A stretch of 64,000 nt of DNA, taken from the IMG/VR virus record IMGVR_UViG_3300032167_007466, positions 45,290-109,289 of that record, one strand, 5' to 3'. The first letter of the stretch is position 1, and every line of letters starts with the position of its first letter. Shown one piece after another: positions 233 through 32,203 of the stretch. The position numbers were made by a program, and so were the translations under genes. The notes below the pieces were generated by a model, which saw only the letters and a list, made by a program, of their open reading frames with translations, made no database searches and was not told the origin of the DNA. Source of the DNA: a virus (taxonomy: Duplodnaviria > Caudoviricetes).

Positions 233-244
233 TATATTATTCTC
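233..244 (-). promoter_or_regulatory. GAGAATAATATA motif (candidate phage-RNAP promoter)
   Basis: Exact copy of a 12-mer that recurs at intergenic or gene-end positions, oriented with local transcription. Confidence 0.55.
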
Positions 245-273: not shown

Positions 274-1254
274 TCACATCATTCTCAATAAATCCCCAAC
301 ACCAAATGCAGCATTGACATAATTTCCAACAGTTGTTTCTATATCCTTATGCCCCAAATTCTGTGCCACAAACTGGATGTCTGCTCTTTTTGCCATAACA
401 GTAGAATAATAATGTCTTATCTGATGTGGAGTAATTCCATTGCCATAATTCTTAAAGATAGCAATAACTGTATCAGCCGAAATACTCGTGTTGTTTTTTG
501 TTATAAATACAGCATTGATATTTTCCACTCCGTCAATTTCTTGTCTTATCTCAAGCCATTTTTCAAGAGCAGACAACGCTGTTCCTGTTATAAATACCTT
601 TCGTTTATCATCTTCTTCATAATAACCTTTACCAAGCACAGTAATATAAGGTATATCTTCCTCAAAATGAAGGTCTGATATTTCCAATCCCGCAAGCTCG
701 CTCTCTCTTATTCCTGAACCTAAAAGTGTTTGAAGCATAGCAATATTCCGCTCTCTCACTATTTTATCCTTTTTCCATTGTATGCGTTCAAACATTTCAT
801 CTATTTGTTTTTTATCAGGCAATTTAGCATAGATATTTTCAACATTATTTTTCTTGCCTTTATAACCACATGTTTTTACCGGATTCTTTTCCAGTTTACT
901 ATTTGGAGACTCAACTAAATTTGAAAAGAAGGATGACAATATATTTTTTCGTGTTGTTAAAGTTGTACGACTCATTCCTTCTGTTTGTCTCTGTTTTAAA
1001 TATAGAAATACATCTGCCGGCTCCAGTGTGTTAAATGAATTTGGAGTTAGTTCAGAGATTCCTTTCTCCGTAATTAAAGCATTTTCCACAAGCCACAAAA
1101 GAAAATCCTTAATGGCAATATAGTAATTTCTCGCACTAGCTTTACTATATAATTTATATAAGTACTTCCGTATAAATAATGGTGTTTTATCTTTGTCAAA
1201 TTCTGCAAACAATTTATCCTCATTGTGTCTTTGAACATTGTCTTTATAACACAT
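274..1254 (-). CDS. Tyrosine recombinase (XerC/D-like), catalytic residues intact
   Basis: GIRESE (R), LGKG (K), PHQIRH (HxxR), LGH, GNY (Y). ATG at 1254 follows an AAGGAAGG RBS; the ORF track extends to TTG 1293. Confidence 0.9.
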   Translation of the reverse strand: MCYKDNVQRHNEDKLFAEFDKDKTPLFIRKYLYKLYSKASARNYYIAIKDFLLWLVENALITEKGISELTPNSFNTLEPADVFLYLKQRQTEGMSRTTLTTRKNILSSFFSNLVESPNSKLEKNPVKTCGYKGKKNNVENIYAKLPDKKQIDEMFERIQWKKDKIVRERNIAMLQTLLGSGIRESELAGLEISDLHFEEDIPYITVLGKGYYEEDDKRKVFITGTALSALEKWLEIRQEIDGVENINAVFITKNNTSISADTVIAIFKNYGNGITPHQIRHYYSTVMAKRADIQFVAQNLGHKDIETTVGNYVNAAFGVGDLLRMM

Positions 1255-1319
1255 TTTAATCCTTCCTTTCTGTAATTTAAGTATAAAAAACAACAGCCAA
1301 CCGAAATCGGCTGTTTAAA

Positions 1320-1615: not shown

Positions 1616-1642
1616 CATAAATTTCAAGTTGAAACTATTATT

Positions 1643-1861
1643 CTATTGTGGTTTTATAACCTGAACATCTGCAATTTCATAGAAGAAAGCATCAAGCTCT
1701 CCTATATCGCCTATTAGGTCACATGAAATATGGGTTTCTGATATATCAGTAACCATACCAACATAGTTCTTTTCATCATTGTTTAATTTAATTTCAACTT
1801 TGTCACCTTGAACAACTTGAACTCCGTTAGATAATACATAACAAAATCTTGCGTTTTCCAT
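1643..1861 (-). CDS. Hypothetical protein
   Basis: ORF with RBS in the co-oriented early array. Confidence 0.7.
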   Translation of the reverse strand: MENARFCYVLSNGVQVVQGDKVEIKLNNDEKNYVGMVTDISETHISCDLIGDIGELDAFFYEIADVQVIKPQ

Positions 1862-1895
1862 AAACAAACCTCTCTTTCACTTTTGAACAATCATT

Positions 1896-2354
1896 TCATT
1901 GATATAATATTCTTTCAATATCAGAGATTATTTCTTCCATTCCCATAATATAAGCATCCTCAAATTCTTGGTCTTCCCAGTGGTTAGTGGATTTTGACTT
2001 TTTAATCTCTTCTTTCCATTGTTTTAATTTATCTTCAATTTGATTGCAAATCCAAGTATCATTATTTACTCGCTTATAACCATCTTCGCCTGTTTCTTTC
2101 CAAAACTCGCCGTCGAGCCATTTCTTTGCTTCTACTAAATCCCCTGAATTAACATACATAGTTGATAATGCCGTGTCGATTATCTTTCTACATACTTCTC
2201 TTTCGCATCCGGGAGCGCAAGTCTTCGCTAAAACAACAGGCGCTTTCATTCCGTCATACACAATAGTCAGTTTATATTTGTCGCTCAATTCTCTATCGTT
2301 TTCGATAGTCATACCCTCTTTTAATTCCTGTTTGAGAATATCTATCATTTTCAT
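1896..2354 (-). CDS. Hypothetical protein
   Basis: 152 aa, AGGA RBS. Confidence 0.75.
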   Translation of the reverse strand: MKMIDILKQELKEGMTIENDRELSDKYKLTIVYDGMKAPVVLAKTCAPGCEREVCRKIIDTALSTMYVNSGDLVEAKKWLDGEFWKETGEDGYKRVNNDTWICNQIEDKLKQWKEEIKKSKSTNHWEDQEFEDAYIMGMEEIISDIERILYQ

Positions 2355-2390
2355 ATTATCACATCCTTTTTAGGTGTTAAAACAGTAGTT

Positions 2391-2684
2391 CTATTGGCAA
2401 TCTATAAAGTTTATATCGCAATCACAACCAATAAATTGACCTCCACAAACAGGGCATCTTTCTACATCACAACCATAATGATGATAATGCCCTTTTAATA
2501 CGTTACAATCATGGCATCTTTCCCCTGTATCAAAATCATCTTCTCCGTATAGGATTCTTTTATAAATTTTTCCATTACATTCAATTTCTGAACAGCTACA
2601 TCCGTCACTTTTTAACATGCGCTGACCGCAAATTTCACATTTAGCTCCGCCTTCAGCAATAATTTCTTCTATGGTTTTATTCAT
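2391..2684 (-). CDS. Cys/His-rich metal-binding protein
   Basis: CEIC, RCHDC, HHYGCD, CPVC, CDC motifs; GGAGG RBS. Confidence 0.75.
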
Positions 2685-2720
2685 TGTATTCCCTCCTAAA
2701 TTCTATATAAAATACACGAT

Positions 2721-2915
2721 TTATTTATTCTTATCGTAATATCCGTTACCGTATCTTCTTCTGATTTCGGACTGTGAAACACCGTTACAGATGTCTCTTG
2801 TCATTTTTGAATTGTCAACATCCAGAGGATTTTTATTTTCCACTTTCTGATTAGTTGAATAACTGCAACATGCCCAAATAACCGCTATGATAATAATTCC
2901 AATTAAAGTTCCCAT
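2721..2915 (-). CDS. Small membrane protein
   Basis: N-terminal hydrophobic helix; C-terminal RRRYGNGYYD. Confidence 0.7.
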   Translation of the reverse strand: MGTLIGIIIIAVIWACCSYSTNQKVENKNPLDVDNSKMTRDICNGVSQSEIRRRYGNGYYDKNK

Positions 2916-2930
2916 AACTCATATTCTCCT

Positions 2931-3170
2931 TTACTTTTTACTTATATCAACATTTTCGCCATCATAATATCCTAATGCTCTTCTTCTATCTCTTTCCTCT
3001 CTCGGAACAGTATCTAAATCAGCCATCATTCTCTCAAAACCAATATCCTTTTTGGTCTTTTGGGTAAAATACTTTTCCGCTTGAGGCGAACTGTATTTTA
3101 CATGATTTCTGTCATAACCTTCCTTTGCCCAAGATCCTAACCCTGCCAATATTCCAAACCATCCAAACAT
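2931..3170 (-). CDS. Small membrane-associated protein, likely paralogue of its neighbour
   Basis: N-terminal hydrophobic stretch; C-terminal RRRALGYYD; GGAGG RBS. Confidence 0.7.
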   Translation of the reverse strand: MFGWFGILAGLGSWAKEGYDRNHVKYSSPQAEKYFTQKTKKDIGFERMMADLDTVPREERDRRRALGYYDGENVDISKK

Positions 3171-3199
3171 GATTTATTCCTCCTAAATTCTTTTCCTAT

Positions 3200-3228
3200 A
3201 TTATACCACAATTAACATCCTCTTGCAA
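3200..3228 (-). promoter_or_regulatory. sigmaA promoter
   Basis: TTGCAA, 17 nt, TGGTATAAT on the minus strand, upstream of 3170. Confidence 0.7.
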
Positions 3229-3403
3229 TGCTTTTGTAGTAAATTTGTGCCACTTGCTGCCGTGATTTTCCAATGATATTTCCAATCTCAGCAAAAGACT
3301 TTTTCTCCGCTTTGAGTTGCTTAACTTTATCTACCGTTCCATCTACTACAAGTTTACTTCTGTACTGATGTGGTCTTTTATATCTATGTTCATATTCGTT
3401 CAA
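3212..3403 (-). CDS. Small HTH DNA-binding protein
   Basis: KSFAEIGNIIGKSRQQVAQI helix-turn-helix pattern. Confidence 0.65.
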   Translation of the reverse strand: MNEYEHRYKRPHQYRSKLVVDGTVDKVKQLKAEKKSFAEIGNIIGKSRQQVAQIYYKSIARGC

Positions 3404-3582
3404 GCTGACACCTTCTCTCTGATATTTTCCATATGATTTTCAGTTCTCGCTTCCGCTACCAACATATCAACTAAGTCATTATAACATTCATCCCAAGTAT
3501 CACCGCTTAATACGAAATTTCCGTTGCTATCATGTACTTCATAATGTTCTTTAACTTGTACGATCCTATGTGTATTATCCAT
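3400..3582 (-). CDS. Hypothetical protein
   Basis: ORF in array with GGAG RBS. Confidence 0.65.
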   Translation of the reverse strand: MDNTHRIVQVKEHYEVHDSNGNFVLSGDTWDECYNDLVDMLVAEARTENHMENIREKVSA

Positions 3583-3584
3583 AA

Positions 3585-3761
3585 TTAAATAGCTCCCATT
3601 CTTAATTTAATCTTTATCTCTGTTAAGTCTGCAAGAGTATTCATAACTTCTAATTCATGTTCAAAATCAATGGGTTTATCAGATGTTTTCCCATAATCTC
3701 TTGCTATGATACTTCTTTGCAAGTTAGATATTTCGCCAATCGTCATATTTGATACTTTCAT
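3585..3761 (-). CDS. Hypothetical protein
   Basis: GGAGG RBS before ATG 3761. Confidence 0.65.
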   Translation of the reverse strand: MKVSNMTIGEISNLQRSIIARDYGKTSDKPIDFEHELEVMNTLADLTEIKIKLRMGAI

Positions 3762-3790
3762 ATTTGCCTCCTGTTGAAATGCGACTTCTA

Positions 3791-4075
3791 TCAAGAAATT
3801 ACCTCAAAATTGCTCTTGAAAATTTCCTCTGATATTACTTTAAACATTCTTCTATCTGATACCCTTCTGATAATATAATCAGTAGGTTTTACAACTGATT
3901 CATAATTATGATGTTCCAAATTACAAATATGTAAATCTGGCACAATTACTCTTACACATAAATCCAACTTCTCTGTTATAAACTTCTTGCATTTTTCCAC
4001 TTGTTCTGAAGTGTATTTTTCATATCTGATTGCTTCATATTCATTTTCCGTAAAAAGATTTCTAATCTTTAACAT
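3791..4075 (-). CDS. Hypothetical protein
   Basis: ORF in array with RBS. Confidence 0.65.
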   Translation of the reverse strand: MLKIRNLFTENEYEAIRYEKYTSEQVEKCKKFITEKLDLCVRVIVPDLHICNLEHHNYESVVKPTDYIIRRVSDRRMFKVISEEIFKSNFEVIS

Positions 4076-4116
4076 ATCCTCTACCTCCAATCCGATTGAA
4101 TACGAGATTTATTGCT

Positions 4117-4848
4117 TTATGCAATCTTTAATTTGCTCTGCTTCTGTTCCGTTTTATTAAGACTTCTGATATATTTTCCACCATCTTTTTCAAAGTATTT
4201 CAGATATCCTTCCTCAATCATTTCATCTGCCACTTTCAAGATATAATCAATGGTCTGTCCACCAGTATAATTCTTTCCATCATTAAGTCCTAAACGATTT
4301 AATCTAACAATTCCTGCAATATTTCTTGCTATGTCAAAAGCAGAATAATATTTTGTTGTTCTTGTTGTGGCTGCTTTTTCAAATAATACCTTGCGAATTT
4401 CCTCTTTTCTTTCGTTTAAGTATTCCTCATATTCGCTATCAGAAATAACATAAACTGTATCATGCAAGTTCACCCAACGAATAGAAGATAATTCCATTCT
4501 GTCAATGGCTTCTGCAACTTTCTTAACATCATTCTTTAAAATAACTCCGCTAATCTGTTGTGGATGTGCGTGTAAATAAGCACGTTTTTCCTTACTATGT
4601 TCCACTTTCCATCCGCTATCTTCCATAATTCCAAAAGATTCTATCAGGTTAATTGCTTCCGTTCTCCATGCCTCTCTATCTTCTGTCGTTTCAAATCTGC
4701 AATTACGGTCATATGATGGTGTATCAATATTAAAATGTACTTCTACATATTCATTTCCATAATCCATATCTGGATTCCAATTATTTGTAAGTGTATGGTC
4801 TTCTCCATAGTCATTTCCAATTCCATACTGATGATATTTAATACTCAT
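4117..4848 (-). CDS. Hypothetical protein
   Basis: 243-aa ORF with RBS. Confidence 0.8.
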   Translation of the reverse strand: MSIKYHQYGIGNDYGEDHTLTNNWNPDMDYGNEYVEVHFNIDTPSYDRNCRFETTEDREAWRTEAINLIESFGIMEDSGWKVEHSKEKRAYLHAHPQQISGVILKNDVKKVAEAIDRMELSSIRWVNLHDTVYVISDSEYEEYLNERKEEIRKVLFEKAATTRTTKYYSAFDIARNIAGIVRLNRLGLNDGKNYTGGQTIDYILKVADEMIEEGYLKYFEKDGGKYIRSLNKTEQKQSKLKIA

Positions 4849-4892
4849 ATAATCAACCTTCCTCTCTGTAAAATAGACTTAAAATTCCGATT

Positions 4893-5141
4893 TCATTGCC
4901 TATTAATTCCTAAAATTCGTTCACAAGCACTATATACAGTTTCAGTATCATCTGTATGTCCATTACACTCTTCAACAATTCTAACAATCATATCCATTGA
5001 TATATCATCAAATTTAGTGTTAAATGGATATACTTTAGATGTTTCACTTTCAAATGCAATAAAGTCAATTATATTCCATTCTTCTGTTGTCATTGGAATA
5101 TTTAATTTTTCATTGCTTGTTTTTGCCCAAGTCTGTTTCAT
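4893..5141 (-). CDS. Hypothetical protein
   Basis: GGAGG RBS. Confidence 0.7.
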   Translation of the reverse strand: MKQTWAKTSNEKLNIPMTTEEWNIIDFIAFESETSKVYPFNTKFDDISMDMIVRIVEECNGHTDDTETVYSACERILGINRQ

Positions 5142-5175
5142 ATTTTACCTCCTAATAAAATCACTCATTTATTGC

Positions 5176-5733
5176 TTAATTTCCACCTGCAAACTCACCA
5201 TAATATTTTTGTCTCATTTCCTCTGCGAATTTTCCGGCTTGTTCTAATTCTTCATAAGAAAATTTTCCAAGTACAGTGTTTTTCTTATTTATCTGAAGCT
5301 GTACTATCCACATTTTCTCTGTGTTACTCCAAGAAACATTTCTGTAACCTGACTTATTATTACTGTTTCTACCCCTTCTGTTTTTAGAATTATTAGTATC
5401 TAAAACAATCCTTAAATTCTCTTTTCTGTTATCCAAGCAATTATTGTTTTTATGATCTACCGTCTTTCCGTTTGCTTCCATAATAAACTGATGTAAAAAT
5501 ATCGGTCTTGCTCTTTTTAGTTCAGGTATGTATTCACTTGCATAAGCATAATATTTACCCATACTTTTATTAAGTTTTGCATACCAAGTATAAGGAAAAT
5601 TTATCAATACTCTTTCCAAATCGTCTAAATCAATAACCGTCCATATACTTTCTGCATTTGTTCTGTTTAATTCAACCCTTACAATATTATTTACTTCATC
5701 AACAATATAATTGTTTCCCTTTTTCTTTGCCAT
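5176..5733 (-). CDS. HNH endonuclease with C-terminal AP2-like DNA-binding domain
   Basis: LHQFIM..VDHKNNNCLDNRKENLR (HNH), followed by NKSGYRNVSW..W..Q (AP2). Confidence 0.85.
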   Translation of the reverse strand: MAKKKGNNYIVDEVNNIVRVELNRTNAESIWTVIDLDDLERVLINFPYTWYAKLNKSMGKYYAYASEYIPELKRARPIFLHQFIMEANGKTVDHKNNNCLDNRKENLRIVLDTNNSKNRRGRNSNNKSGYRNVSWSNTEKMWIVQLQINKKNTVLGKFSYEELEQAGKFAEEMRQKYYGEFAGGN

Positions 5734-5768
5734 CCCAACTCTCCCTCTTTAATGCCCTTTCATCTGCT

Positions 5769-6128
5769 TTATTCTTCAACATCTAATAGTGTTACATTTC
5801 CGTTTTCAACAAGATAAATTTCATCAGCCGAAACATCCTCAATGTTGTATATCCTCTCAATAGGTAAGTATTCAAAATCAATCTTTTGAACACCACCGCT
5901 CCAAAAGATATAATCCGGATTGTGATAATACTGTTGTGCAACCAAATCAGCTTTTACAAAATCCTCAACTGTTCCAACATATTCAAAGGCTTTTATAATT
6001 TCATTCCAATCCTTGTCACAATATCCATGCATGCCCCTCTGTTCAAAATCGTGCTTATCTCCGTTGTATTCCTCTGTCGCATACATTCTGCCTTTGTTAT
6101 CCGTAAAAATTATCCTTCTGCGTGTCAT
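5769..6128 (-). CDS. Hypothetical protein
   Basis: GGAGG RBS. Confidence 0.7.
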   Translation of the reverse strand: MTRRRIIFTDNKGRMYATEEYNGDKHDFEQRGMHGYCDKDWNEIIKAFEYVGTVEDFVKADLVAQQYYHNPDYIFWSGGVQKIDFEYLPIERIYNIEDVSADEIYLVENGNVTLLDVEE

Positions 6129-6185
6129 ATTCGTTTCCTCCTAAAATCTATACTTAAACCCCTAATTCTATCGTGTTATTTCCGC

Positions 6186-6350
6186 TTACGATATATGCCT
6201 TCTGTGTACTAATGCACATTTGTTGCAGACACAAACCGTTTTTAATCCTTCGTTTTTTACCAAAGTTAAAACTTCATACTTTACACTTCTTGTTTCACCG
6301 CAAAAATGGCATTTTAAGTTTTTGTCTTTCCAATTCTCAATAAGTTTCAT
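6186..6350 (-). CDS. 54-aa zinc-finger protein (not in ORF track)
   Basis: GGAGG RBS; MKLIENWKDKNLKCHFCGE...CVCNKC. Confidence 0.65.
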   Translation of the reverse strand: MKLIENWKDKNLKCHFCGETRSVKYEVLTLVKNEGLKTVCVCNKCALVHRRHIS

Positions 6351-6359
6351 AATAGCCTC

Positions 6360-6692
6360 CTAACAAGCAGGACAACCGCATTTTCCGTATAACGCTCCAT
6401 GCTTCAAAAACATTCCTATATTCATAATTTCGTGTCTGTCAAGCTCTCTGCCCTTGTTTTCTCCAGCGATGTAGACAAAGCATCTTTTGACAATTTCCTT
6501 CGGCAATAATACCGCTTCTTTTGTGATAACCTTTATTCCAATACCCAAAGACAACATCACATCTCCGGCACCGCCATCAACTATATATCGTCTTATTTCC
6601 TCTGTTGCTCTGTTTAAATGATCTTGTGTTAAGGCTACACCAAAGAATAATTTTTCCGTCAAGTCTCTATATTCAAAGTAATTACAAGTCAT
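6360..6692 (-). CDS. Hypothetical protein
   Basis: GGAGG RBS before ATG 6692. Confidence 0.65.
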   Translation of the reverse strand: MTCNYFEYRDLTEKLFFGVALTQDHLNRATEEIRRYIVDGGAGDVMLSLGIGIKVITKEAVLLPKEIVKRCFVYIAGENKGRELDRHEIMNIGMFLKHGALYGKCGCPAC

Positions 6693-6721
6693 ATTAAATC
6701 CCTCCGTGTAAAGCAATTTGT

Positions 6722-6961
6722 TTAAAACTGTATTTCCGCTTCTTCTCTCCATCCAATAGGCTTATAACCCAACGCGGAAAGAAAACTCTGATAAATAGTG
6801 TTTAACCACTCCACTCTTGTTTTATCATTGCCTTTGATCCTGTCAAAAACATTCATATCAATAAAACGCTTCTGTTCTTCTTCCGTTAGCTTCTGCCAAG
6901 TCCACGACTTTTTAATAACATTCTGAAAGTAATTTTCCACCGTCATTGTGTGTTTTGCCAT
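6722..6961 (-). CDS. Hypothetical protein
   Basis: GGAGG RBS. Confidence 0.7.
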   Translation of the reverse strand: MAKHTMTVENYFQNVIKKSWTWQKLTEEEQKRFIDMNVFDRIKGNDKTRVEWLNTIYQSFLSALGYKPIGWREEAEIQF

Positions 6962-6973
6962 TTTCAAAACCTC

Positions 6974-7102
6974 CTACTCTACATCAAATTCTTCTATGTC
7001 AAAATTTCCGTCATACTTATTGCATCCAATATCATAAGCCTTTGTATATTCATCATAAATGCCTATGATTTCTCCATCTACACTTAATACATAAACCGTC
7101 AT
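6974..7102 (-). CDS. Small acidic hypothetical protein
   Basis: GGGGAG RBS before ATG 7102. Confidence 0.6.
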   Translation of the reverse strand: MTVYVLSVDGEIIGIYDEYTKAYDIGCNKYDGNFDIEEFDVE

Positions 7103-7130
7103 AGCAAACTCCCCTTTTAAAATCCTTGTT

Positions 7131-7325
7131 TCATCGTGTCTCGTCATTGAATACATCAATAAAATAATCCGCTTTTGGAAATTCTGAAAGGTATTTTCCA
7201 CCCTCTCCGTATTCCTTGTTATATTCACTAACCACCGCCCATGCCTTATCGTGATCTTCTGTTTCCAAAACAGTTTTTACTGTTCTTCCGCTTTTCTTTT
7301 CCCTTATATCAACACAATACAACAT
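7131..7325 (-). CDS. Hypothetical protein
   Basis: GAGG RBS before ATG 7325. Confidence 0.6.
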   Translation of the reverse strand: MLYCVDIREKKSGRTVKTVLETEDHDKAWAVVSEYNKEYGEGGKYLSEFPKADYFIDVFNDETR

Positions 7326-7329
7326 TGCT

Positions 7330-7857
7330 TTATTCCTCGCTTTCCGTTGCTTCAAACCTTGCACAAACAAAATTTTCCGCATCTAAAATGTATTCTGAAT
7401 TATTCCAATTTTCCTCTGCTACTGCTTCTGCTTCAATCCGGCTATCAGCTTCAATATAAACAACTTTTTCCAATGTTTCTGTTATCTTAACTGCATACTG
7501 TCTTGTTGTCTTTTCCTCTGTTTCATTTTCCATAAGCTGACATCCCTCTGTGTTAAACATACAATCATAAGAATTTTTATTATAGCATCCTTTGACACCA
7601 CAAGTTAAATCCTGATGATGATTTCCAAAAGTTATTCCGTTGTATTCCGTTTCTGCAATTTCCTTTTCGGTTTCCTCTTTGAAAACTCCACACTCTGCAT
7701 ATAACCCATATTTCTTGATGCAGTGCGGACAAACATATACATTCGCACTATCAAATCCGTCAAGAGATTTTGAGTTATAATCTCCATAATCGTTTGTTTC
7801 TCCGTTGTATAGCTGAAAATCATCAAATTCAATACCTTTGTAAAGTAATTTCTTCAT
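7330..7857 (-). CDS. Protein with C-terminal DpnD/PcfM-like domain
   Basis: YAVKITETLEKVVYIEADSRIEAE..W..SEYILDAENF. Confidence 0.65.
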   Translation of the reverse strand: MKKLLYKGIEFDDFQLYNGETNDYGDYNSKSLDGFDSANVYVCPHCIKKYGLYAECGVFKEETEKEIAETEYNGITFGNHHQDLTCGVKGCYNKNSYDCMFNTEGCQLMENETEEKTTRQYAVKITETLEKVVYIEADSRIEAEAVAEENWNNSEYILDAENFVCARFEATESEE

Positions 7858-7872
7858 ATCTAAAACCCCTTA

Positions 7873-8340
7873 TTATAAAGAACATTTTCCGCATCCGTTA
7901 CCATCACATAAACTGCATGCAAGAATAACACTTCCGCAACTTTGACAAACCACAATCTTTTTTCCGTCCTTATAGTCCTTTGCTTCTGATAACTTGTATT
8001 CGTTTATATGGTCGCAATGCGGACAAGTCTCCTCTAAAATTTCATCTTCAACAATTCTCTCTGTAATATTGTTTCTTTCCTCATATTTTTTGACACTCGC
8101 TCTAATCGTTTCTACACAATCCTCTATGTAGTTTTTATTGCTTTCATCTTTCCAAAGTGTTGCTCCGTAAACATAGTCAACAAAATTTGTATCTACATTA
8201 TAGTTAGCATCCATAAGTATTATAAAGACAATATCACTTGTATATTGTTTATCTGCTCCTATTGATACACCCTCTAAAAGTTCATATTCAATCCCTAAAT
8301 CACTAATAAACACATAACCATCTGATTTTAATTTGATCAT
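7873..8340 (-). CDS. Hypothetical protein with C-terminal zinc ribbon
   Basis: CPHC, CQSC, CSLC, CGKC. Confidence 0.7.
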   Translation of the reverse strand: MIKLKSDGYVFISDLGIEYELLEGVSIGADKQYTSDIVFIILMDANYNVDTNFVDYVYGATLWKDESNKNYIEDCVETIRASVKKYEERNNITERIVEDEILEETCPHCDHINEYKLSEAKDYKDGKKIVVCQSCGSVILACSLCDGNGCGKCSL

Positions 8341-8504
8341 CTGTTTTTACTCTCCCATTCTTCAAACTCTTTCCATACAGATTCTCTGTAATATACATCA
8401 CTTAAAAAATAGTGTGGATGTGCTTCTAAAAATGCTTCGATATGTGAAAACTTTTCTTCTCCAAGTTGTTTTCTTATCTGTTCATATTCTTGTAAAATGC
8501 TCAT
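8337..8504 (-). CDS. 55-aa hypothetical protein (not in ORF track)
   Basis: GAGGAG RBS; MSILQEYEQIRKQLGEEKF...; overlaps the next start by 4 nt. Confidence 0.6.
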   Translation of the reverse strand: MSILQEYEQIRKQLGEEKFSHIEAFLEAHPHYFLSDVYYRESVWKEFEEWESKNR

Positions 8505-8510
8505 TAACAA

Positions 8511-8744
8511 TCACTCCTCATAATTCCATAATTCAAGCTCGTCAAAAATCCATGTATTGTCTTTGTATTCCTCTGCAAGTTCTGCTCCAATACTTCGCCA
8601 ATTTGACGGACAATTTATAGTTAGTGCCATCTGTTCAATAAGTTGTGCTGCAAACTGCAATAACTCTCTTGATTCGTCATAAAGGCTTAAATTTTCCTTG
8701 TAATATATAGCTTTTTCAATCATGCTTTTTATGATATTTTCCAT
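8511..8744 (-). CDS. Hypothetical protein
   Basis: AGGAG RBS. Confidence 0.65.
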   Translation of the reverse strand: MENIIKSMIEKAIYYKENLSLYDESRELLQFAAQLIEQMALTINCPSNWRSIGAELAEEYKDNTWIFDELELWNYEE

Positions 8745-8749
8745 CTGTT

Positions 8750-8971
8750 TTATTCTCCTTTGCAATACTTCTTTACATATCGTCTGAAAGTCGCTTCTGC
8801 TTTCTTTTTATCATTGATTGAATATGTCATTTTTTGAAGAGGATAACCGCACATATTATTGTCATAACAGGGACAAACCTCTACAATATAAATGTCATTT
8901 CCCCATACATTTTTAACTTCCATAGTCACATAATAATTATTTTCCTTGTGTTGCCTTATTACTGTTGACAT
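8750..8971 (-). CDS. Hypothetical protein
   Basis: GGAGG RBS. Confidence 0.65.
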   Translation of the reverse strand: MSTVIRQHKENNYYVTMEVKNVWGNDIYIVEVCPCYDNNMCGYPLQKMTYSINDKKKAEATFRRYVKKYCKGE

Positions 8972-9084
8972 ATTAAAACATCCCTCCGCTTTAAAATCTT
9001 GCTTTCAAAGTGTTTTTTCCATAAAAATAGAGTGACCTATGTATTAAACACATAAATCACTCTGTAAATGTTTTTTAATATCAA

Positions 9085-9306
9085 TCAATTTTCTGTAAAA
9101 ACTCCGCTATTGATGCAAACAGTAATTAACACATGCCCATTATTGCCCGGGGCTATAGCCGTAAGTGTTGCCTCTTTATATCTACTCATCTTTTTTTTAT
9201 CCTCTAAAGAAAAATCGTCAACATAACTATATTCTTCATTTGTTGCATCTTCAACCAATATATCGCAATCTACAACCATATATCCACTAATATCTTTTAA
9301 TTTCAT
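9085..9306 (-). CDS. Hypothetical protein in a self-contained moron
   Basis: GGAGG RBS; own promoter (9331-9359) and terminator (9029-9063). Confidence 0.7.
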   Translation of the reverse strand: MKLKDISGYMVVDCDILVEDATNEEYSYVDDFSLEDKKKMSRYKEATLTAIAPGNNGHVLITVCINSGVFTEN

Positions 9307-9330
9307 AACAAAACCCTCCTTTCATATGTT

Positions 9331-9359
9331 ATTATACCAAATTAATCTTGAAAATTCAA
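9331..9359 (-). promoter_or_regulatory. sigmaA promoter
   Basis: TTGAAT, 17 nt, TGGTATAAT. Confidence 0.7.
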
Positions 9360-9423
9360 GTCTGTATGAGTGATTTATGTATTTAATTGTCAAGGTTCAA
9401 ATTAATATTTTTCAAAAACCGCT

Positions 9424-9627
9424 TTATTTTCCGTTTACTTGATTATAAATGTAATGTAATTTGTCTTGTGCTTCTGTTTCCGTTTCTGCCTCTGCAAGTG
9501 CAAAATTACCGCATAAATTAATACTTGCATATATGATAAAATTCTTCTGTTCGTGTTCCGGCTCTGATATATAAATACTTGTTATTTGTGCCGTGTTCAA
9601 TAGTCTTTTATTGTCATGTGTTTTCAT
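9424..9627 (-). CDS. Hypothetical protein
   Basis: AGGAG RBS. Confidence 0.6.
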   Translation of the reverse strand: MKTHDNKRLLNTAQITSIYISEPEHEQKNFIIYASINLCGNFALAEAETETEAQDKLHYIYNQVNGK

Positions 9628-9662
9628 CGTGTCCGTGCTCCTACTGTCAAGCAATTTAAAAA

Positions 9663-10049
9663 TTAATCAATATAGCAGTTAATAACCGTTGCAAACTGTC
9701 TCATATTTTCCGCTATTGTCTGCCGTTCCTCTGCTCTTTTTTGATCTGATTCCCAACCGTCAACACCTTTAAAAAGTTTGTTGTATGTTTCTATTGGTTT
9801 TAAGTTGTGCAGATAATAAAGGCGATTTTCTGCAATAATAACCGCATCTATAATATCAGCAATACCACTACCCCAAAGTCCAGCACTTCTCAAAGATTTA
9901 AAATGTTCTATTTGTTTATTTGGCTGCAAATCCTTAAATTTGCAGATATTCCGCACAACTCCGCATGTTTTGTTGTTTTCCGTGTTTACAACTGTAATTG
10001 ATGTTTTACCTATTTTTATATGCTTGTTTTCAAGTTCTGAAATGTGCAT
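9663..10049 (-). CDS. Hypothetical protein
   Basis: GGAGG RBS. Confidence 0.65.
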   Translation of the reverse strand: MHISELENKHIKIGKTSITVVNTENNKTCGVVRNICKFKDLQPNKQIEHFKSLRSAGLWGSGIADIIDAVIIAENRLYYLHNLKPIETYNKLFKGVDGWESDQKRAEERQTIAENMRQFATVINCYID

Positions 10050-10089
10050 TTTGACAACCTCCAAAATTTACTATAAAATCATTATTCAA

Positions 10090-10377
10090 TTACCAAGCAA
10101 TATGTAAAAATCTATCCCCATGCACATTATAAAAATTATCTTCTTTTGTTTCCCATACTCTAAAACCCTTTGCAATGAAATAGTTTTTTACTTCGTTGTA
10201 TTCCTCAATCCATCTAATTTTAGTCATAAAGGATGTAACGCCCTTTTTAGCTGATTTTTTAACATCTGCTTTTAATGTTCTGATAATGCTTTTGACTTCC
10301 TTTTTATAGCTCTTTTGTGCTTTTCTTGTTTCCTTTTGTGCTAAACCTCTAACCGCTTTAATATTAAATACCATCAT
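10090..10377 (-). CDS. Basic hypothetical protein
   Basis: AGGAG RBS. Confidence 0.65.
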   Translation of the reverse strand: MMVFNIKAVRGLAQKETRKAQKSYKKEVKSIIRTLKADVKKSAKKGVTSFMTKIRWIEEYNEVKNYFIAKGFRVWETKEDNFYNVHGDRFLHIAW

Positions 10378-10424
10378 TTTTTTATTCTCCTTTTAATTTG
10401 ATTTTTTAGTGTAAAGTAATTTAA

Positions 10425-10688
10425 TTATTTAATAACTAATTTAATAAAATTAAGTATGTAAGCAATACCACAACACAAAAAGCCTTGTAAAAGTTGTGTG
10501 ATAATTTGTGTAAATGGTATGTTGTTGTTGTCTGATGTTCCTGCCGTGCCTATAATCCATATAACACCGCAAAAAGCACATAGAAAAGTTAATATTTTTA
10601 AAATGGTTATAACTGCACTTTTAAAGCGACTTTTTAACAAGTCTATATTGATATATATAGTCTGTTTTTCTGTTGTTATAGTTAGCAT
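10425..10688 (-). CDS. Small membrane protein
   Basis: Two hydrophobic helices. Confidence 0.65.
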   Translation of the reverse strand: MLTITTEKQTIYINIDLLKSRFKSAVITILKILTFLCAFCGVIWIIGTAGTSDNNNIPFTQIITQLLQGFLCCGIAYILNFIKLVIK

Positions 10689-11074
10689 TATTGCACCGCC
10701 TTTTTTAATTCTCTATAAATTAAATTTGTCAAAAGTTTTTCTGCATCCGCTTCTGAATATTTGCTTTTTTCTGCTTCTGTTTCTTCTAATATAACCGCTA
10801 AATCATTAACCGCACTTCTGTTGTAAAAATAACATGTATCAATTACAGAAGGTAAACCGCTACACCAATCAAAAAATATTTCTTGTTCTGAGTAATTTTT
10901 GTAGCCGTCATTATATCGCTTTTCAGTAAGAAAACAATTATAAATAAATTTTGCTATTGCTTCAAATGTTTTTGGCTCTTCTGTTGTGCCGTCATCATAA
11001 TTACAGAAGTCAAAGTTGTTGATTATGTAATTTTTAATATTTTCTATTGCTTTTTTGCTATTTGTTTTTAACAT
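10688..11074 (-). CDS. Hypothetical protein
   Basis: GGAGG RBS. Confidence 0.7.
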   Translation of the reverse strand: MLKTNSKKAIENIKNYIINNFDFCNYDDGTTEEPKTFEAIAKFIYNCFLTEKRYNDGYKNYSEQEIFFDWCSGLPSVIDTCYFYNRSAVNDLAVILEETEAEKSKYSEADAEKLLTNLIYRELKKAVQ

Positions 11075-11092
11075 AGTTATTCCCTCCGCTTT

Positions 11093-11428
11093 TTATTTCT
11101 GTATTTCTTCAATAAACTTTTCAACAAGTTTTTCAAGCTTCTTTTGTTGTTCTTCGTATTTGATAGAATAATCTTTAAAAAGTGCTTCTGCTTTTGCTTC
11201 GTATTTTTCAGTTATTCTATAATCAATTCTAATTCCCGGCATGCTTCTGTAACCTGTGCAAATTGCTATATTGCCGTTGTCAAGTGAAAATACATCGTAA
11301 TTCCAACCATAAACACCGCTATTATAACCGACTTTGTTTGACCTTCTTAAAAGACATTGTAATTCACAATAACCAATACAATATATTTTTTTGTAACCGT
11401 TCTGTATTTCTTTTCTTGTCATTTTCAT
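11093..11428 (-). CDS. Hypothetical protein
   Basis: GGAGG RBS before ATG 11428. Confidence 0.7.
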   Translation of the reverse strand: MKMTRKEIQNGYKKIYCIGYCELQCLLRRSNKVGYNSGVYGWNYDVFSLDNGNIAICTGYRSMPGIRIDYRITEKYEAKAEALFKDYSIKYEEQQKKLEKLVEKFIEEIQK

Positions 11429-11499
11429 TTTTAATACCTCCAAATATTTCATAGAATTACTGTTTTATAGTGTTTCTGCCCTCTGTTATGCCCTCTGTA

Positions 11500-11844
11500 T
11501 TAATTAATATAATCGTTGTAATCACTCTGTAATTCGCCTTTTATAATCTCATTATGCAGGCACTTAAGCTCCCATTTTAAATAATTTATAGATTGCTTCA
11601 GCATTGCATCAAGTTCTTTTTTGCTGATGCCTTTAAAGTTATCATTTACGGCTTTAAAGTAGTTATATGCTTCGCTGCTAAACTCATAATCGAATAATAT
11701 ACAAGATGTCATATCATAACAGAAATCAAACGCTTTTTTAACCTGATACCATAAATATTGATGATCTGCTTTTTTGGATGCCGTTGTGTTTAGTGCCTTT
11801 ACAGTTTCAATACATTTTAAAACATTGTTATAATTGTATGTCAT
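11500..11844 (-). CDS. Hypothetical protein
   Basis: GGAGG RBS. Confidence 0.65.
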   Translation of the reverse strand: MTYNYNNVLKCIETVKALNTTASKKADHQYLWYQVKKAFDFCYDMTSCILFDYEFSSEAYNYFKAVNDNFKGISKKELDAMLKQSINYLKWELKCLHNEIIKGELQSDYNDYIN

Positions 11845-11850
11845 GATGTT

Positions 11851-12054
11851 TTATGCCTCCTTGCTAAAAATTAAATCACCTTTATTTATAAAGCCTTTAA
11901 AGGTTTTAATTGCATCGTCTGCATCATAGCTTGTATCTGTAATATTATAGTAATTGATTATTACATTAATAATACTGTCGGTTGTTGCTGCATCGTATTT
12001 GGTCTGATTAGATGCTATGTTTTTTAAAGTGTTTTTTAATTCGATAGTATTCAT
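11851..12054 (-). CDS. Hypothetical protein, first gene of the leftward operon
   Basis: AAGGA RBS before ATG 12054. Confidence 0.6.
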   Translation of the reverse strand: MNTIELKNTLKNIASNQTKYDAATTDSIINVIINYYNITDTSYDADDAIKTFKGFINKGDLIFSKEA

Positions 12055-12132
12055 TTTTTGTACCGTCCTTTTTTTAGTTTGGGTCTCAGGTCGCTGCAAA
12101 GTAATTTGTATTAACTACCCTTGACACTTACT

Positions 12133-12194
12133 ATTATAGCAAATAGAGTACACTATTTCAATAGGCAAAATAACAAAAATAGAGTACACTATTT
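12133..12194 (-). promoter_or_regulatory. Leftward sigmaA promoter with two identical 18-bp palindromic operators
   Basis: TTGAAA (12161-12156), 17 nt, TGCTATAAT (12138-12133). AAATAGAGTACACTATTT at 12141-12158 and 12177-12194. Confidence 0.8.
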
Positions 12195-12277
12195 TGTGCA
12201 TATTTACTAACAATATATTGCGTTTTATAGCACATTAAAACATATTAAACACTACATATTGTATATAGGAATGATGT

Positions 12278-12306
12278 TTGACTTTTTTAAAAAAATATGA
12301 TAAAAT
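12278..12306 (+). promoter_or_regulatory. Rightward sigmaA promoter
   Basis: TTGACT, 17 nt, TGATAAAAT. Confidence 0.65.
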
Positions 12307-12339
12307 ATTTTAAAGTTTTTATTGTTTGAGGTCTGAAGA

Positions 12340-12525
12340 ATGGAAGAAAAGAAAAGTACATACAATGCAACCGCACAAAAAAAGTACAATGAAAAAAGAA
12401 AAAAGATAGCCTGCACTGTATACAATGATTTATATGACAAGATAAAGCTGCACGCAAGCAAAAAAGGATTTACAAGTATTAATTCATATGTATTAGATTT
12501 AATAAAAAAAGATATGGAATTGTAA
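12340..12525 (+). CDS. Ribbon-helix-helix (Arc/CopG-like) regulator
   Basis: AQKKYNEK..IACTV..DLYDKIK.HA.KKG.TSINSYVLDLI pattern; divergent from the operator-bearing promoter. Confidence 0.7.
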   Translation: MEEKKSTYNATAQKKYNEKRKKIACTVYNDLYDKIKLHASKKGFTSINSYVLDLIKKDMEL

Positions 12526-14504: not shown

Positions 14505-14717
14505 ATGCAAAATGGAGATTACATAAATGACCCTTCAAGATTTGGAGGCAGGATATATTTATCGGATTTTGAAACAGATTATAGAGGTAAAGACAATACC
14601 GCCGGTTCCATTATCGCTTCTCGTATCATTTCAGACTGGCGTTTTGATGAAATGTGTAGGAAAAATTCGATTATTAGAGATAAAAAGAGCAAGAATGATG
14701 GCAAAGGAGGAAATTGA
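14505..14717 (+). CDS. Hypothetical protein
   Basis: AAGGAG RBS; stop abuts the probable RNAP start. Confidence 0.6.
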   Translation: MQNGDYINDPSRFGGRIYLSDFETDYRGKDNTAGSIIASRIISDWRFDEMCRKNSIIRDKKSKNDGKGGN

Positions 14718-14718
14718 C

Positions 14719-17346
14719 ATAGAAGCAACACAATATACACTTGTAAAGATTCCTATTAAAGAACTTATATCTCAGAATTATGAAGTAAACTTAACTCAAG
14801 AGCAGGAAATAAACAATGAATATTTGATAAAACAAGGATCTTCCCCTTTATTTGACCAAATAGAAAGACTTCGTGGGGAATTTTCAACTCACATAAATGA
14901 AATAATCCTAGTGGTTGCAAAGAAGAATCCAAGGCAGGAAAAGGATTTAAGTTATATTTTAGATAAAGGTTTTGTATATAATGGCGTGCATTATAAGCGT
15001 TTTGGAAAATCTGCCTCTCAAGGGAAAGACGGGATTACCGCATTTGTATGTGATGATATCTTTGACGAGTTATATATGGTTACACAAATGGATATTGAGA
15101 TTGAAGAGTGTGTAATATCAAAATATGAAGCACAAAGATGTCTTGTATTTAGTTCCTGTACACTCATTCAGGATTATATGCCTAACATTGTTATTATAGG
15201 AGAATATGAAAAAACACTACGAAATCAGCTAATAAAATATGTTGTTGAAAGGGAACGTGAGTTTGTCGACAAGGAAACAGGTAAAACAAAAAAATATAAT
15301 TCAAGGGAAATTGAAGAGGGTTATAAAGATTTAAAACTTATACCATTTGATGGTTGTGGATGTCACGAAAAAGAGTTTATGGAAATTACCAGCGCCCAGC
15401 TTGGACTAGATTACAATGCTATAGGCAGCCAGATAAGGCTTCCGTTTGTTAAGGGGTATTCTGTTTATGTACCATTCCGAGAAATCCTTAAAGAATGGGG
15501 ATATGAATACATAACCGATATATATGGACATAAGCATCGTATTGATACAATTGATTGTATTTGGAATACGTCTATGTTTAAAGGACATAAAATCTTCAAA
15601 GAAAAATATGGCAACGATGCTTGGATAGAATATATGAATACACTTCGTAAGTATAACTTTAAACTTGGAATAAGCAAATACAGTCATCATATAAAAAACC
15701 TTAATAAGTATACCCGTATGAATTTTCAATATTTACAGTGTTTAGATTTGTGGAATCCTAAATATATTGATTATTGCGAAAATCAAATCGTTGGAGATTA
15801 TGATATTCTTAATAACAAAAATAATGGTAAAATAATTTCGTTAGCTAAGTATACCACTTCACTTTTTGAAAAAATAATCAAAGGTGATAAGTTCTATACA
15901 TACAAATTCATGGGTATATTAGACACCGAAAGTTATGAGCCTGAAAGCAAATATCTTGAAGCTGCACTTGTCAACGATGTAATGTTAAAAGACCCTGCCG
16001 TTAAGCAGTTTATATATCGTAAACTGAAAAAGTCAATTGACGAAGCTAAAGTTGGAAAAATATATTGTTCAGGCTTTTATCATACTGGCGTTGGGGATAT
16101 GATTGGTTATTTACAATATGCGGTTGGTGAAGATCCTGTTGGATGTTTAAATGAAAGAGAGTTGTATAGTGCCAATTTTGAGTCTGGTGATATTATTTCT
16201 TTTCGCTCTCCACTTGTTGATCCTTCGGAAGTGAATAAGATACGGATTGTGCGTAATGACATCTCAAATAAATGGTTTAAACATTTTAAAGACCAAGATG
16301 TTGTTATGTTTAATATGTACGATGTGTCAGCTCCACAACAAGGCGGTGCAGATTTTGACGGAGATATATTTTTACTCTGTAATGAGCCAATAATTATTGA
16401 TTCTAAAATCGATAAGAAAATAATTATTGACATAGATGACAAAACAACTGCAAAAGCAAAACCCTACACAAAAGAAAATATTATTGAGTATGAGGTTATG
16501 ACCAGAGATAATCGTATAGGCGAGATTACAAATTCGGCAACCAGTATTGAAAATAGGTACACTACAAACGAAGATATTAAAGCCTTATATGACAATTATT
16601 CTTCCCTACTACGTGTGTACCAAGGACATGAAATCGACTTTATCAAGACCGGCACTCGATGGCAAATGACAAAGGGATTAAGAAAACATCTAAATCAACT
16701 GCCTTACTTTTTGTTGTTTAATTATCCAAAAAAGATGAAAACCTATATCAAATTAAAAGAAAAAAATAAGTATATCGAAAACCCTCAAGATAAAATCAAA
16801 TTAAACGCATATCACTCCCCTTCTCCCATGAACGAGTTGTGTGACTACGTTTGCGCTTGGGAAAAGAAAAATATATTATGGGACAACCAGTTGCAAGATT
16901 TAATTGATACAAGATGTCTTATTATAAATAACGATTTAGACTTAAACAACAAAAACGCCCTAAAAATTGCACGTAGATATGTAAATTCATACGCTGACGA
17001 ATTAAGAAAACATCTTAATATGAATAAGGACAAGGACAAATCTAATAGCGGAGACTATAAATTCGCAATGGAGAAACTTGTAGAAAAATATAAACAAAAT
17101 TTAAAACGAGATATAAGTTTAAGAGAAGAATTGGTAGCTAATTATGTAATAAAAGCATCTTATGGTAACTTTTCTATCAGCAAGTCGCTTGCTTGGTCGG
17201 CTTATGGAGATTATATAATCAAAAATTTAAAAGCAAATTCAAACCCACAAAGAAACATCTCTATAACTGAAGTCCCCTATCAAACAAATAACTCATATGG
17301 GTATCTTGGAAAGTTTTATGAGTTTAAGGAGGTTGATGTATTATAG
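14719..17346 (+). CDS. yonO: YonO-like single-subunit DNA-dependent RNA polymerase
   Basis: GGADFDGD catalytic motif (16351-16365), FRSP, DG, QIR and KG motifs; SPbeta-like synteny. Start uncertain (ATA 14719 behind GGAGG, or ATG 14695/14698). Confidence 0.88.
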   Translation: MEATQYTLVKIPIKELISQNYEVNLTQEQEINNEYLIKQGSSPLFDQIERLRGEFSTHINEIILVVAKKNPRQEKDLSYILDKGFVYNGVHYKRFGKSASQGKDGITAFVCDDIFDELYMVTQMDIEIEECVISKYEAQRCLVFSSCTLIQDYMPNIVIIGEYEKTLRNQLIKYVVEREREFVDKETGKTKKYNSREIEEGYKDLKLIPFDGCGCHEKEFMEITSAQLGLDYNAIGSQIRLPFVKGYSVYVPFREILKEWGYEYITDIYGHKHRIDTIDCIWNTSMFKGHKIFKEKYGNDAWIEYMNTLRKYNFKLGISKYSHHIKNLNKYTRMNFQYLQCLDLWNPKYIDYCENQIVGDYDILNNKNNGKIISLAKYTTSLFEKIIKGDKFYTYKFMGILDTESYEPESKYLEAALVNDVMLKDPAVKQFIYRKLKKSIDEAKVGKIYCSGFYHTGVGDMIGYLQYAVGEDPVGCLNERELYSANFESGDIISFRSPLVDPSEVNKIRIVRNDISNKWFKHFKDQDVVMFNMYDVSAPQQGGADFDGDIFLLCNEPIIIDSKIDKKIIIDIDDKTTAKAKPYTKENIIEYEVMTRDNRIGEITNSATSIENRYTTNEDIKALYDNYSSLLRVYQGHEIDFIKTGTRWQMTKGLRKHLNQLPYFLLFNYPKKMKTYIKLKEKNKYIENPQDKIKLNAYHSPSPMNELCDYVCAWEKKNILWDNQLQDLIDTRCLIINNDLDLNNKNALKIARRYVNSYADELRKHLNMNKDKDKSNSGDYKFAMEKLVEKYKQNLKRDISLREELVANYVIKASYGNFSISKSLAWSAYGDYIIKNLKANSNPQRNISITEVPYQTNNSYGYLGKFYEFKEVDVL

Positions 17347-17354: not shown

Positions 17355-18161
17355 TTGTATGAAATAATTGAAGATTATAAATCTTGTGAAAATAAAGATA
17401 ATATTTTTAATTCTTTCTGTCGCATAATTTGGCAAAGTGATAATAAGAGGAAAGTGTTTACAAAAACAATTCATTACACCGTTAGAAAAGATTTGTTAAA
17501 CACAGATGTTGGTAAAGTGTTTGATTGTTGGTCTGATGTGGAGTATAAAGGCTATAAGGCTATGTCAACTGAAAATGATTGGTGCAGTCTTATACGACAG
17601 AAAATAAACAATCTTTATACTCGATATTTTGATAAAGAAGTAATTCTTAATAAAGATTATATGCATTTATTGAACACACCAAAAAGATTATATTACAGAT
17701 GGATTGACGGAGACGAAATGGATGCTGATGAGTTGACTGTTATCATTGATGACGCGATTGACAAGGCAATTAAATTAAAACCCATATATCAAAAACAAAA
17801 GATGTCGCTATCTTGGCAGGAATATAAAACCTTGATAGAGGTGTTCCTAAGGAAGATTTTTGACAGATGCAAGACAATCAACGAGTATGAAGATAGAAAC
17901 ATTAAAATTCGGTTGTATGATTTTGCAAACGAAGATAATTTTTACATACGATATTTTTGTAAATGTCTTGAGGGTGAAATGTTGAAATATCAAAAGCAAT
18001 ACTATGGTGTAAGGGATCATAAAAAATACAAAAGGTGTAAAACTTGTGGTTCTTTAATTGAAAATGACGCAAAAAATCGCCAATATTGTGATAGTTGTAA
18101 AAAGAAAAAAAGAAAAGAAATAAATCACAATTACTACATTAAGACTGTTTTAAAATCATAG
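17355..18161 (+). CDS. Hypothetical protein with C-terminal zinc finger (possible RNAP accessory factor)
   Basis: CKTCG..YCDSC; directly after the RNAP gene. Confidence 0.7.
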   Translation: MYEIIEDYKSCENKDNIFNSFCRIIWQSDNKRKVFTKTIHYTVRKDLLNTDVGKVFDCWSDVEYKGYKAMSTENDWCSLIRQKINNLYTRYFDKEVILNKDYMHLLNTPKRLYYRWIDGDEMDADELTVIIDDAIDKAIKLKPIYQKQKMSLSWQEYKTLIEVFLRKIFDRCKTINEYEDRNIKIRLYDFANEDNFYIRYFCKCLEGEMLKYQKQYYGVRDHKKYKRCKTCGSLIENDAKNRQYCDSCKKKKRKEINHNYYIKTVLKS

Positions 18162-32182: not shown

Positions 32183-32203
32183 AGAAAGTGAGGAATTTGA
32201 ATT

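Follow-up and report, generated by a model that had tools for sequence, protein, structure and literature searches.

What are the short palindromes that recur between the small early genes of a large gut phage, and do they mark places at which genes are exchanged? The question is raised by a 64,000-nt stretch of viral DNA (hereafter the window), which comprises bases 45290-109289 of the 109,289-bp IMG/VR provirus record IMGVR_UViG_3300032167_007466 (completeness 79% by CheckV). The phage is large (~140 kb), uncultured, gut-derived and temperate. An initial annotation of the window had listed 13 sites at which two 5-bp arms enclose a 6-bp spacer, and had proposed that they delimit the cassettes of an integron-like system. 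All 13 sites are present, and their consensus is a 16-bp AT-rich dyad, T(A/G)AAA-N6-TTT(T/C)A, which we call P. As a tentative best explanation, we propose that P is a lineage-specific, protein-binding boundary dyad that punctuates the early operons and serves secondarily as a crossover point, in the manner of the promoter-early stem-loop (PeSL) motifs of T4-like phages.

Between record positions 244 and 57750 (window 12461) nearly every gene is on the minus strand, and plus-strand genes run from window 13589 onward. Because the minus-strand block spans record 244-57750, the gene array at window 1643-12461 is the promoter-proximal end of a 57-kb early/middle block, across the whole of which ~30 copies of P are found. 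Read on the gene strand (minus), the 13 sites follow T(A/G)(A/G)AA-N6-(N)TT(T/C)(T/C/A)A, with 3-5 of 5 arm positions complementary. The ideal P is a 6-4-6 inverted repeat, TAAAAC-N4-GTTTTA, whose half-sites carry a weak outer extension, C-N-W (C at -3, G at +3), giving a total length of 16 to ~22 bp. As the initial annotation had stated, the first triplet of P is the true stop codon of the upstream open reading frame (ORF) at six sites (1630, 1883, 2378, 2708, 4880 and 7118); at the others the stop lies 1-33 nt upstream or far off (8992). A ribosome-binding site (RBS) of the GGAGG type follows 2-16 nt downstream at 11 of 12 sites, and long gaps can hold two copies of P. Three further sites were found in the window (3775, 6709 and 10393). 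The array and the sites are as follows; the G-box mentioned in the second line is another conserved motif, described below.

Window 1643-12461, minus: array of ~33 co-oriented small early genes, the in-window portion of the 57-kb early block.
Window 1630-1645, minus: P; its TAG terminates ORF 1643-1867; a G-box lies 14 nt downstream, and there is no RBS.
Window 1883-1898, minus: P; its TGA terminates ORF 1896-2354; an RBS is next.
Window 2378-2393, minus: P in the 6-4-6 form TAGAAC-TACT-GTTTTA; its TAG terminates ORF 2391-2684.
Window 2708-2723, minus: P of spacer type CGTGTA, found in unrelated contexts in L024 (identical 16-mer) and L031 (15/16 bases).
Window 3775-3790, minus: extra P, TAGAAG-TCGC-ATTTCA, in the overlap of ORFs 3791-4090 and 3585-3794; absent from the original list.
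Window 4096-4111, minus: P downstream of a 243-aa gene; left arm plus spacer CTCGTA.
Window 4880-4895, minus: P upstream of the 243-aa gene; spacer TCGGAA.
Window 5156-5171, minus: P of spacer type GAGTGA, a type seen in four unrelated contexts; the true stop ends 4 nt upstream.
Window 6155-6170, minus: P; the true stop ends 15 nt upstream.
Window 6709-6724, minus: extra, weaker P-like site, preceding the RBS of ORF 6360-6752.
Window 7118-7133, minus: P with the top matrix score; its TGA terminates ORF 7131-7382.
Window 8992-9007, minus: P in a 113-nt gap with an operator-like box, 4 nt before an RBS and far from stops.
Window 10074-10089, minus: P, TTGAAT-AATG-ATTTTA; a stop is immediately upstream.
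Window 10393-10408, minus: extra, loose P-like site directly before an RBS.
Window 11452-11467, minus: P, 10 nt before an RBS; the stop is 30 nt upstream.
Window 18151-18166, plus: P at the 3' end of gene 17355-18161, in an early/middle module beside the RNA polymerase gene.

Both comparisons suggested in the initial annotation, with shuffled intergenic DNA and with late-gene boundaries, came out in favour of the motif. P occurs in 24 of 46 early intergenic gaps vs 4.55 ± 2.0 (maximum 10) in 300 dinucleotide shuffles with the stop codon kept in place, an approximately fivefold enrichment, and in 1 of 24 late gaps (1.3 expected; early vs late, Fisher p = 4.6e-5). When the spacing between arms was scanned over the 57.8-kb early block, a peak appeared exactly at six nucleotides (N6; 42 vs a background of ~18; 19 vs ~5 with strict arms), and the late block showed no N6 peak. 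Applied to the 45 kb that precede the window, a matrix built from 12 sites of the initial annotation yielded 18 further minus-strand matches; we place 14 of these in intergenic gaps. Independent relatives (G001 and L023-L031) gave an N6 peak of 105 vs ~47, and L043 and L057 also show the peak. The 5-mers most enriched 11 nt from one arm are TTTTA (3.8x) and TTTCA (6.1x) on one side and TAAAA (3.7x) and TGAAA (4.1x) on the other, so that the enrichment on either side picks out the reverse complement of the opposite arm. Neither P nor the G-box was found in phage TR-TP1, a distant relative with the same genome layout, indicating that P is lineage-specific. Collectively, these data support P as a real, non-random, dyad-symmetric element whose 5-6-5 layout is that of a site bound by a dimer.

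The same data bear on the simplest explanation of the motif, namely that P is a functionless linker: homologous spacers composed of a stop codon, an AT-rich stretch and an RBS would have spread with the cassettes, and the dyad would arise from base composition and stop codon usage. P is indeed AT-rich, the stop codon supplies part of its left arm, and its recurring spacer types suggest common descent. However, the fivefold excess persists over dinucleotide shuffles in which the stop codon is fixed, the spacing peak is sharp to the single nucleotide in several independent genomes, the enrichment is mirror-symmetric, the left arm stays T(A/G)(A/G)AA even when it is not a stop, and the motif does not extend to the late gaps of this genome. 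The inherited-linker explanation is thus largely refuted, and we regard it as very improbable.

On which molecule might P be read? Mirrored positions of P showed no covariation (pair 2-15, p = 0.13; pair 6-11, p = 0.95), pair 2-15 is mismatched in 39% of sites, and the mean RNA folding energy of P is -1.5 kcal/mol vs -1.3 kcal/mol for shuffles. The lack of covariation, together with a folding energy like that of shuffles, rules out an RNA or DNA hairpin. Because the two halves of the inverted repeat are each enriched but vary independently, the pattern points to recognition of double-stranded DNA by a dimeric protein. Recognition as single-stranded RNA is disfavoured, since the two halves would then be two different words. 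P also stands apart from genic signals: no stop is adjacent at 8992, no RBS follows at 1630, and the copy at record 14123 lies upstream of a canonical terminator. P is therefore a unit in its own right.

A role at the RNA level has nonetheless to be weighed. P could be an intercistronic element of the early mRNA, combining a stop context with an AU-rich enhancer ahead of the Shine-Dalgarno sequence and controlling re-initiation, processing or decay. The targets of T4 RegA and RegB offer a model for such control of early messages, and P is early-specific, as RegB targets are. P is present in most intra-operon gaps of 22-60 nt, and of three promoter-like gaps (window 3171-3211, 8972-9084 and 9307-9423) only 8972-9084 has it (8992). 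Moreover, roughly every second site uses a true stop as its left arm, and GGAGG begins 1-16 nt after the right arm. However, the enriched form of the right arm is the reverse complement of the left one, down to the rare C of TTTCA, which an RNA element would leave unexplained unless the arms pair; by covariation, mismatch frequency and folding energy, they do not. P also occurs away from stop codons or RBSs. We consider an RNA-level element unlikely, though worth keeping in view.

Several known elements were also compared with P. A sigma70-type promoter was rejected on both strands, as -35/-10 spacings misfit and P can lie 2-4 nt from the RBS. Intrinsic termination was rejected because canonical terminators exist elsewhere, one of them after a P site, and a CsrA-type GGA in the loop was rejected because, on inspection, GGA occurs in a minority of spacers only. 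The boxes of cre/CcpA, LexA (Cheo box), CRP, Rex, CodY, ComK (AT-box) and IHF appear to differ from P in spacing or half-site and serve as leads only.

Does P coincide with the limits of exchanged genes? The early arrays are hypermosaic, as the 243-aa gene at 4117-4848 illustrates; it has 513 homologues and is of unknown function. Homologues at 72-88% identity were found in nine contexts with entirely different neighbours, which include Fic, HicA, GmrSD_N, ThiF/E2 and peptide deformylase genes; the neighbours suggest counter-defence arrays. The gene is also present in a smaller phage with an SPP1-type portal (L029). The upstream P (TCGGAA) is shared by the window, L030 and L025 despite unrelated upstream genes, and the downstream P (left arm plus CTCGTA) by the window, L025, L030 and L026, where the downstream genes are likewise unrelated. 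In total, the 243-aa gene retains a flanking P in 4-5 of the 9 contexts, and in these the nucleotide homology stops in or at the outer arms, so that the exchanged unit would appear to consist of P, RBS, gene and P. In three of the nine (L023, L024 and L031), no P was found on either side of the gene. Over all pairs, homology breakpoints scatter among the stop codon, both P arms, the sequence after P and the RBS. The expectation that breakpoints in relatives would fall at the sites thus holds for about half of the contexts of one gene; it does not hold in the others, nor in a sister clade (L044-L056).

Spacers provide a second view of exchange. Four spacer types (GAGTGA, TAATAG, TCTAAG and CGTGTA) recur from phage to phage as 16-20-bp islands whose surroundings are unrelated. 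Pairs of loci with identical spacers number 35 vs 2.4 under column permutation and 10-18 in flank controls, and 73 of 109 spacers are unique. The islands fit crossovers at P by either of the mechanisms considered here, and the excess over flank controls is modest. The sister clade is equally mosaic at gene boundaries, with no P signal in the 6.5-kb loci examined. Its members share an HNH gene 59% identical to 5176-5733, and their segments, 92-99.9% identical to one another, are broken by gene-sized insertions and deletions exactly at stop-codon/RBS junctions; one 476-bp insertion is flanked by a 5-nt overlap (L045, position 4055-4059). Among contigs of this same phage, no rearrangement was seen: those from other samples that code for an identical 243-aa protein and were aligned match the window at 99.8-100% identity, and all 23 contigs from other samples with the 97-aa gene have the same order and spacing, with no cassette gain, loss or inversion. 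Taken together, the location of P at the edges of exchangeable modules is partly supported. Of the earlier claim that the sites delimit exchangeable cassettes, what stands is their position at module junctions that are swapped between related phages; the scattered breakpoints and the three contexts without P speak against a strict delimitation.

Based on these findings, we propose a plausible account of P as a boundary dyad. The half-site would be T(A/G)AAA, with two halves one helical turn apart, and a dimeric protein, encoded by phage or host, would most likely recognise them on double-stranded DNA. P would serve as standard punctuation between the cistrons of early and accessory operons, and the degeneracy of the half-site (TAA, TGA or TAG, then AA) would allow one arm to double as the stop codon of the upstream gene, which would save space in a compact genome. 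The primary role is most likely regulatory and early-gene-specific, with many binding sites that would silence, block or time transcription. Since most gene junctions hold a near-identical 16-22-bp copy, P would also offer preferred crossover points for the exchange of single-gene modules between related phages. P is seen at module edges; the mechanism of recombination is inferred. The HU/IHF-family protein encoded at 19837-20109 is a candidate P binder.

Several points weigh against this account. No P-binding protein was identified, and P occurs within operons instead of at promoters, an uncommon location for an operator. Site collection relied on arms that had in part been derived from the same sites, a circularity that does not affect the spacing test, the upstream 45 kb or the relatives. 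By our reading, about three quarters of gaps of 22-60 nt carry P, which would also suit a role at the RNA level. Sharing of spacers is only two- to threefold above flank controls. Finally, crossovers also occur without P, both in L023, L024 and L031 and in the sister clade, and P is accordingly not required for exchange.

The alternative in which exchange is the primary function is that P is the core site of a recombinase, with a 6-8-bp overlap, and that sites with matching spacers recombine in an integron- or Xer-like manner. Two tyrosine recombinases in the window could be considered for this role:

Window 274-1293, minus: XerC/D-like tyrosine recombinase with the full R-K-HxxR-H-Y catalytic set; not conserved in relatives.
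Window 22999-24015, plus: YomM-family tyrosine recombinase with catalytic residues present; conserved in G001, G003, G005 and many Firmicute phages.

Both score best against XerC/XerD models. Against the integron-integrase model (TIGR02249 / NF011946), which includes the extra domain specific to IntI, the 274-1293 protein reached 32 bits over its last 36 residues only (cut-off 265), and the 22999-24015 protein had no match. The 274-1293 recombinase was not found in G001, which has P-rich arrays, nor in G002, G003 or G005. The 22999-24015 protein belongs to the YomM family of SPbeta and has homologues at 23-41% identity in ~157 Firmicute phage records (Staphylococcus 6ec, Enterococcus VPE25 and Lactobacillus phages among them), so this lineage has no exclusive hold on it. 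The P-carrying L043 and L057 did not yield it, but these records are only 63-69% complete. Among the relatives compared, no co-occurrence of P with either tyrosine recombinase was found. A third recombinase, a large serine enzyme with Resolvase, Recombinase and Zn-ribbon domains, is encoded at the left end of the provirus record (244-1830), outside the window, and is likely the integrase, resembling SprA of SPbeta.

Site-specific cassette exchange draws support from the 5-6-5 dyad, which fits the core geometry of tyrosine recombinases, from the position of P at module edges and from the identical P types that recur as 16-20-bp islands, a pattern that exchange at matching spacers would leave. 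If the serine recombinase covers integration, the two catalytically intact tyrosine recombinases would be left without an assigned role. Set against this, neither tyrosine recombinase is IntI-like, and their distribution does not follow that of P: the first is missing from P-carrying G001, and the second is widespread and was not found in those two incomplete P carriers. In addition, the conserved arms are just 5-8 bp, with 5 bp in each strongly conserved, most spacers are unique, breakpoints are not at one position, the 243-aa gene moves without P in three of nine contexts, and the 23 contigs from other samples show no cassette events. Exchange of this kind is therefore quite unlikely. The proposal that the array is shuffled by one of the two tyrosine recombinases is not supported on the same grounds, as the first is absent from P-rich G001 and the second belongs to a widespread family. 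The label of an integron-like system is contradicted further by the lack of an attC core match, of a hairpin and of a fixed breakpoint; neither the integron-like mechanism nor the link to the neighbouring recombinases is supported. A broader form of the idea is that P is the core of a viral counterpart of integrons, in which single anti-host genes pass from one co-infecting phage to another at P sites whose spacers match, through the action of one of the two Xer-like enzymes or of another recombinase. Such a system would account for identical P types that recur as islands in otherwise unrelated sequence; we judge it improbable. If P sites were true recombination sites, they would constitute a new cassette system in viruses.

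The boundary-dyad account can be set beside known systems. Xer recombinases act on dif sites, which have AT-rich inverted inner arms around a 6-bp spacer, an arrangement that P may resemble; however, dif arms are 11 bp and one site is used per replicon, whereas P has only ~5-8 conserved bp in each arm, occurs in dozens of copies and varies in its spacers. Integrons, like the window, line up small genes in one orientation, most of them without a promoter of their own and many trailed by an imperfect inverted repeat, close to a gene for a tyrosine recombinase. They differ in that attC sites span 57-141 bp, with R''/L''/L'/R' boxes, a GTTRRRY core and a folded hairpin, none of which is present in the 16-22 bp of P; in that the recombinase gene here is co-oriented with the array and lies downstream of it, and is not divergent at an attI; and in the absence here of an IntI signature and of fixed breakpoints. 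Repetitive extragenic palindromic (REP) sequences are likewise short imperfect palindromes in many copies, placed right after stops between co-transcribed genes, but REPs are GC-rich and form stable hairpins, and P is neither GC-rich nor hairpin-forming.

The PeSL of T4-like phages is ~50-60 bp long, with a terminator stem-loop and a sigma70 early promoter joined in one element, and insertions, deletions or replacements between relatives end at or in it (PMC2839356, PMC4122927). Like P, PeSLs are short conserved motifs repeated at boundaries within hyperplastic regions of small early genes. In contrast, P is 16-22 bp, has no stable hairpin and, on inspection, no sigma70-type boxes, and the G-box follows it in a minority of cases. 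In Bacillus phage SPbeta, a 15-bp element, SPBRE, occurs at ~10 promoter regions and is bound by MrpR (YopR), a protein with a tyrosine-recombinase fold that has lost its catalytic residues (PMC10516654). SPbeta, too, is a YonO-encoding phage with a short repeated intergenic element, and SPBRE/MrpR is the nearest precedent for such an element bound by a recombinase-fold protein. The differences are that P has at least 30 copies, lies inside operons and not at promoters, and that the two tyrosine recombinases of this phage retain R-K-HxxR-H-Y.

Long arrays of small early genes, functionally uncharacterised and turning over very fast, are a feature of the large temperate phages of gut Firmicutes; these genes are likely aimed at host takeover and counter-defence. 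A dyad at about half of the junctions would give a handle on a protein that controls or recombines the whole early region, and would make P a practical marker for module limits in uncultured phage genomes. It would also be a second, independent example, after the T4-like PeSL, of a regulatory boundary motif that shapes modular evolution.

The remainder of the genome places P in context. The plus-strand block opens with a YonO-type single-chain RNA polymerase at 14527-17346 (Pfam RdRP, 50 bits; phrog_8308), followed by an exonuclease, the HU/IHF-family protein, a tRNA, the tyrosine recombinase at 22999-24015, the terminase and tail genes. The minus-strand block encodes a primase-helicase, a PD-(D/E)XK nuclease, NrdD, a C5 methylase, TnpB, a radical-SAM enzyme and a 1049-aa protein, whose C-terminal 384 residues match the HHH_6 domain only and which we take, from sequence, to be DNA polymerase III alpha-like. 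By polymerase, the nearest cultured phages (23-28% identity) are Thomasclavelia TR-TP1, Enterocloster phages, Clostridium c-st and SPbeta-like phages; polymerase homologues reach at most 80% identity. A search of INPHARED for relatives at the DNA level gave no match, scans with the 175-aa and 152-aa array genes returned almost nothing, and no close relatives with partial synteny for mapping insertions and deletions were found. None of the 10 array proteins tested had a PHROG match, and no Rfam family matched in the array.

The G-box, (T)GGAGAATAAT(A/T)TA, is the second conserved motif of this genome, with ~19 copies in both the early and late halves:

Window 236-244 and 1607-1615, minus: G-box.
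Window 13410, 14445, 24041, 41643 and 44196, plus: G-box.
Record 9619-34967, outside the window: ~10 copies of the G-box.

Its copies are oriented with the local genes in all but one case (44172), usually with no ATG directly after, and a variant, GAGAATATT, occurs in sister clades. These features are promoter-like, and the G-box may serve the YonO-type polymerase as its promoter. As of 2017, it had yet to be determined which promoter YonO uses (PMC5467207). P precedes the G-box by 12-14 nt in four cases; a fixed composite of the two was rejected, since 11 of 53 G-box promoter-like motifs have P ≤40 nt upstream, in two spacing classes.

A near-palindromic box, AAATAGTGTACTCTATTT, occurs at window 12141-12156 and 12177-12192, with a variant at 9025-9040, all on the minus strand. 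One copy sits at the main early promoter, between a TTGAAA -35 and a TATAAT -10, and the other just upstream. This box is likely a repressor operator, and would be a closer analogue of the SPBRE of SPbeta than P is.

Two RNA features lie just downstream of a G-box, one matching the drum RNA family of Rfam (53 bits) and the other a second tRNA-like sequence that was not called by ARAGORN:

Window 24698-24801 and 24856-24914, plus: drum RNA and tRNA-like sequence, respectively.

Inside the early block, outside the window, the TnpB gene (record 32144-33484; OrfB_IS605 and Cas12f1-like TNB domains) is flanked by P and a G-box on one side and by a G-box on the other.

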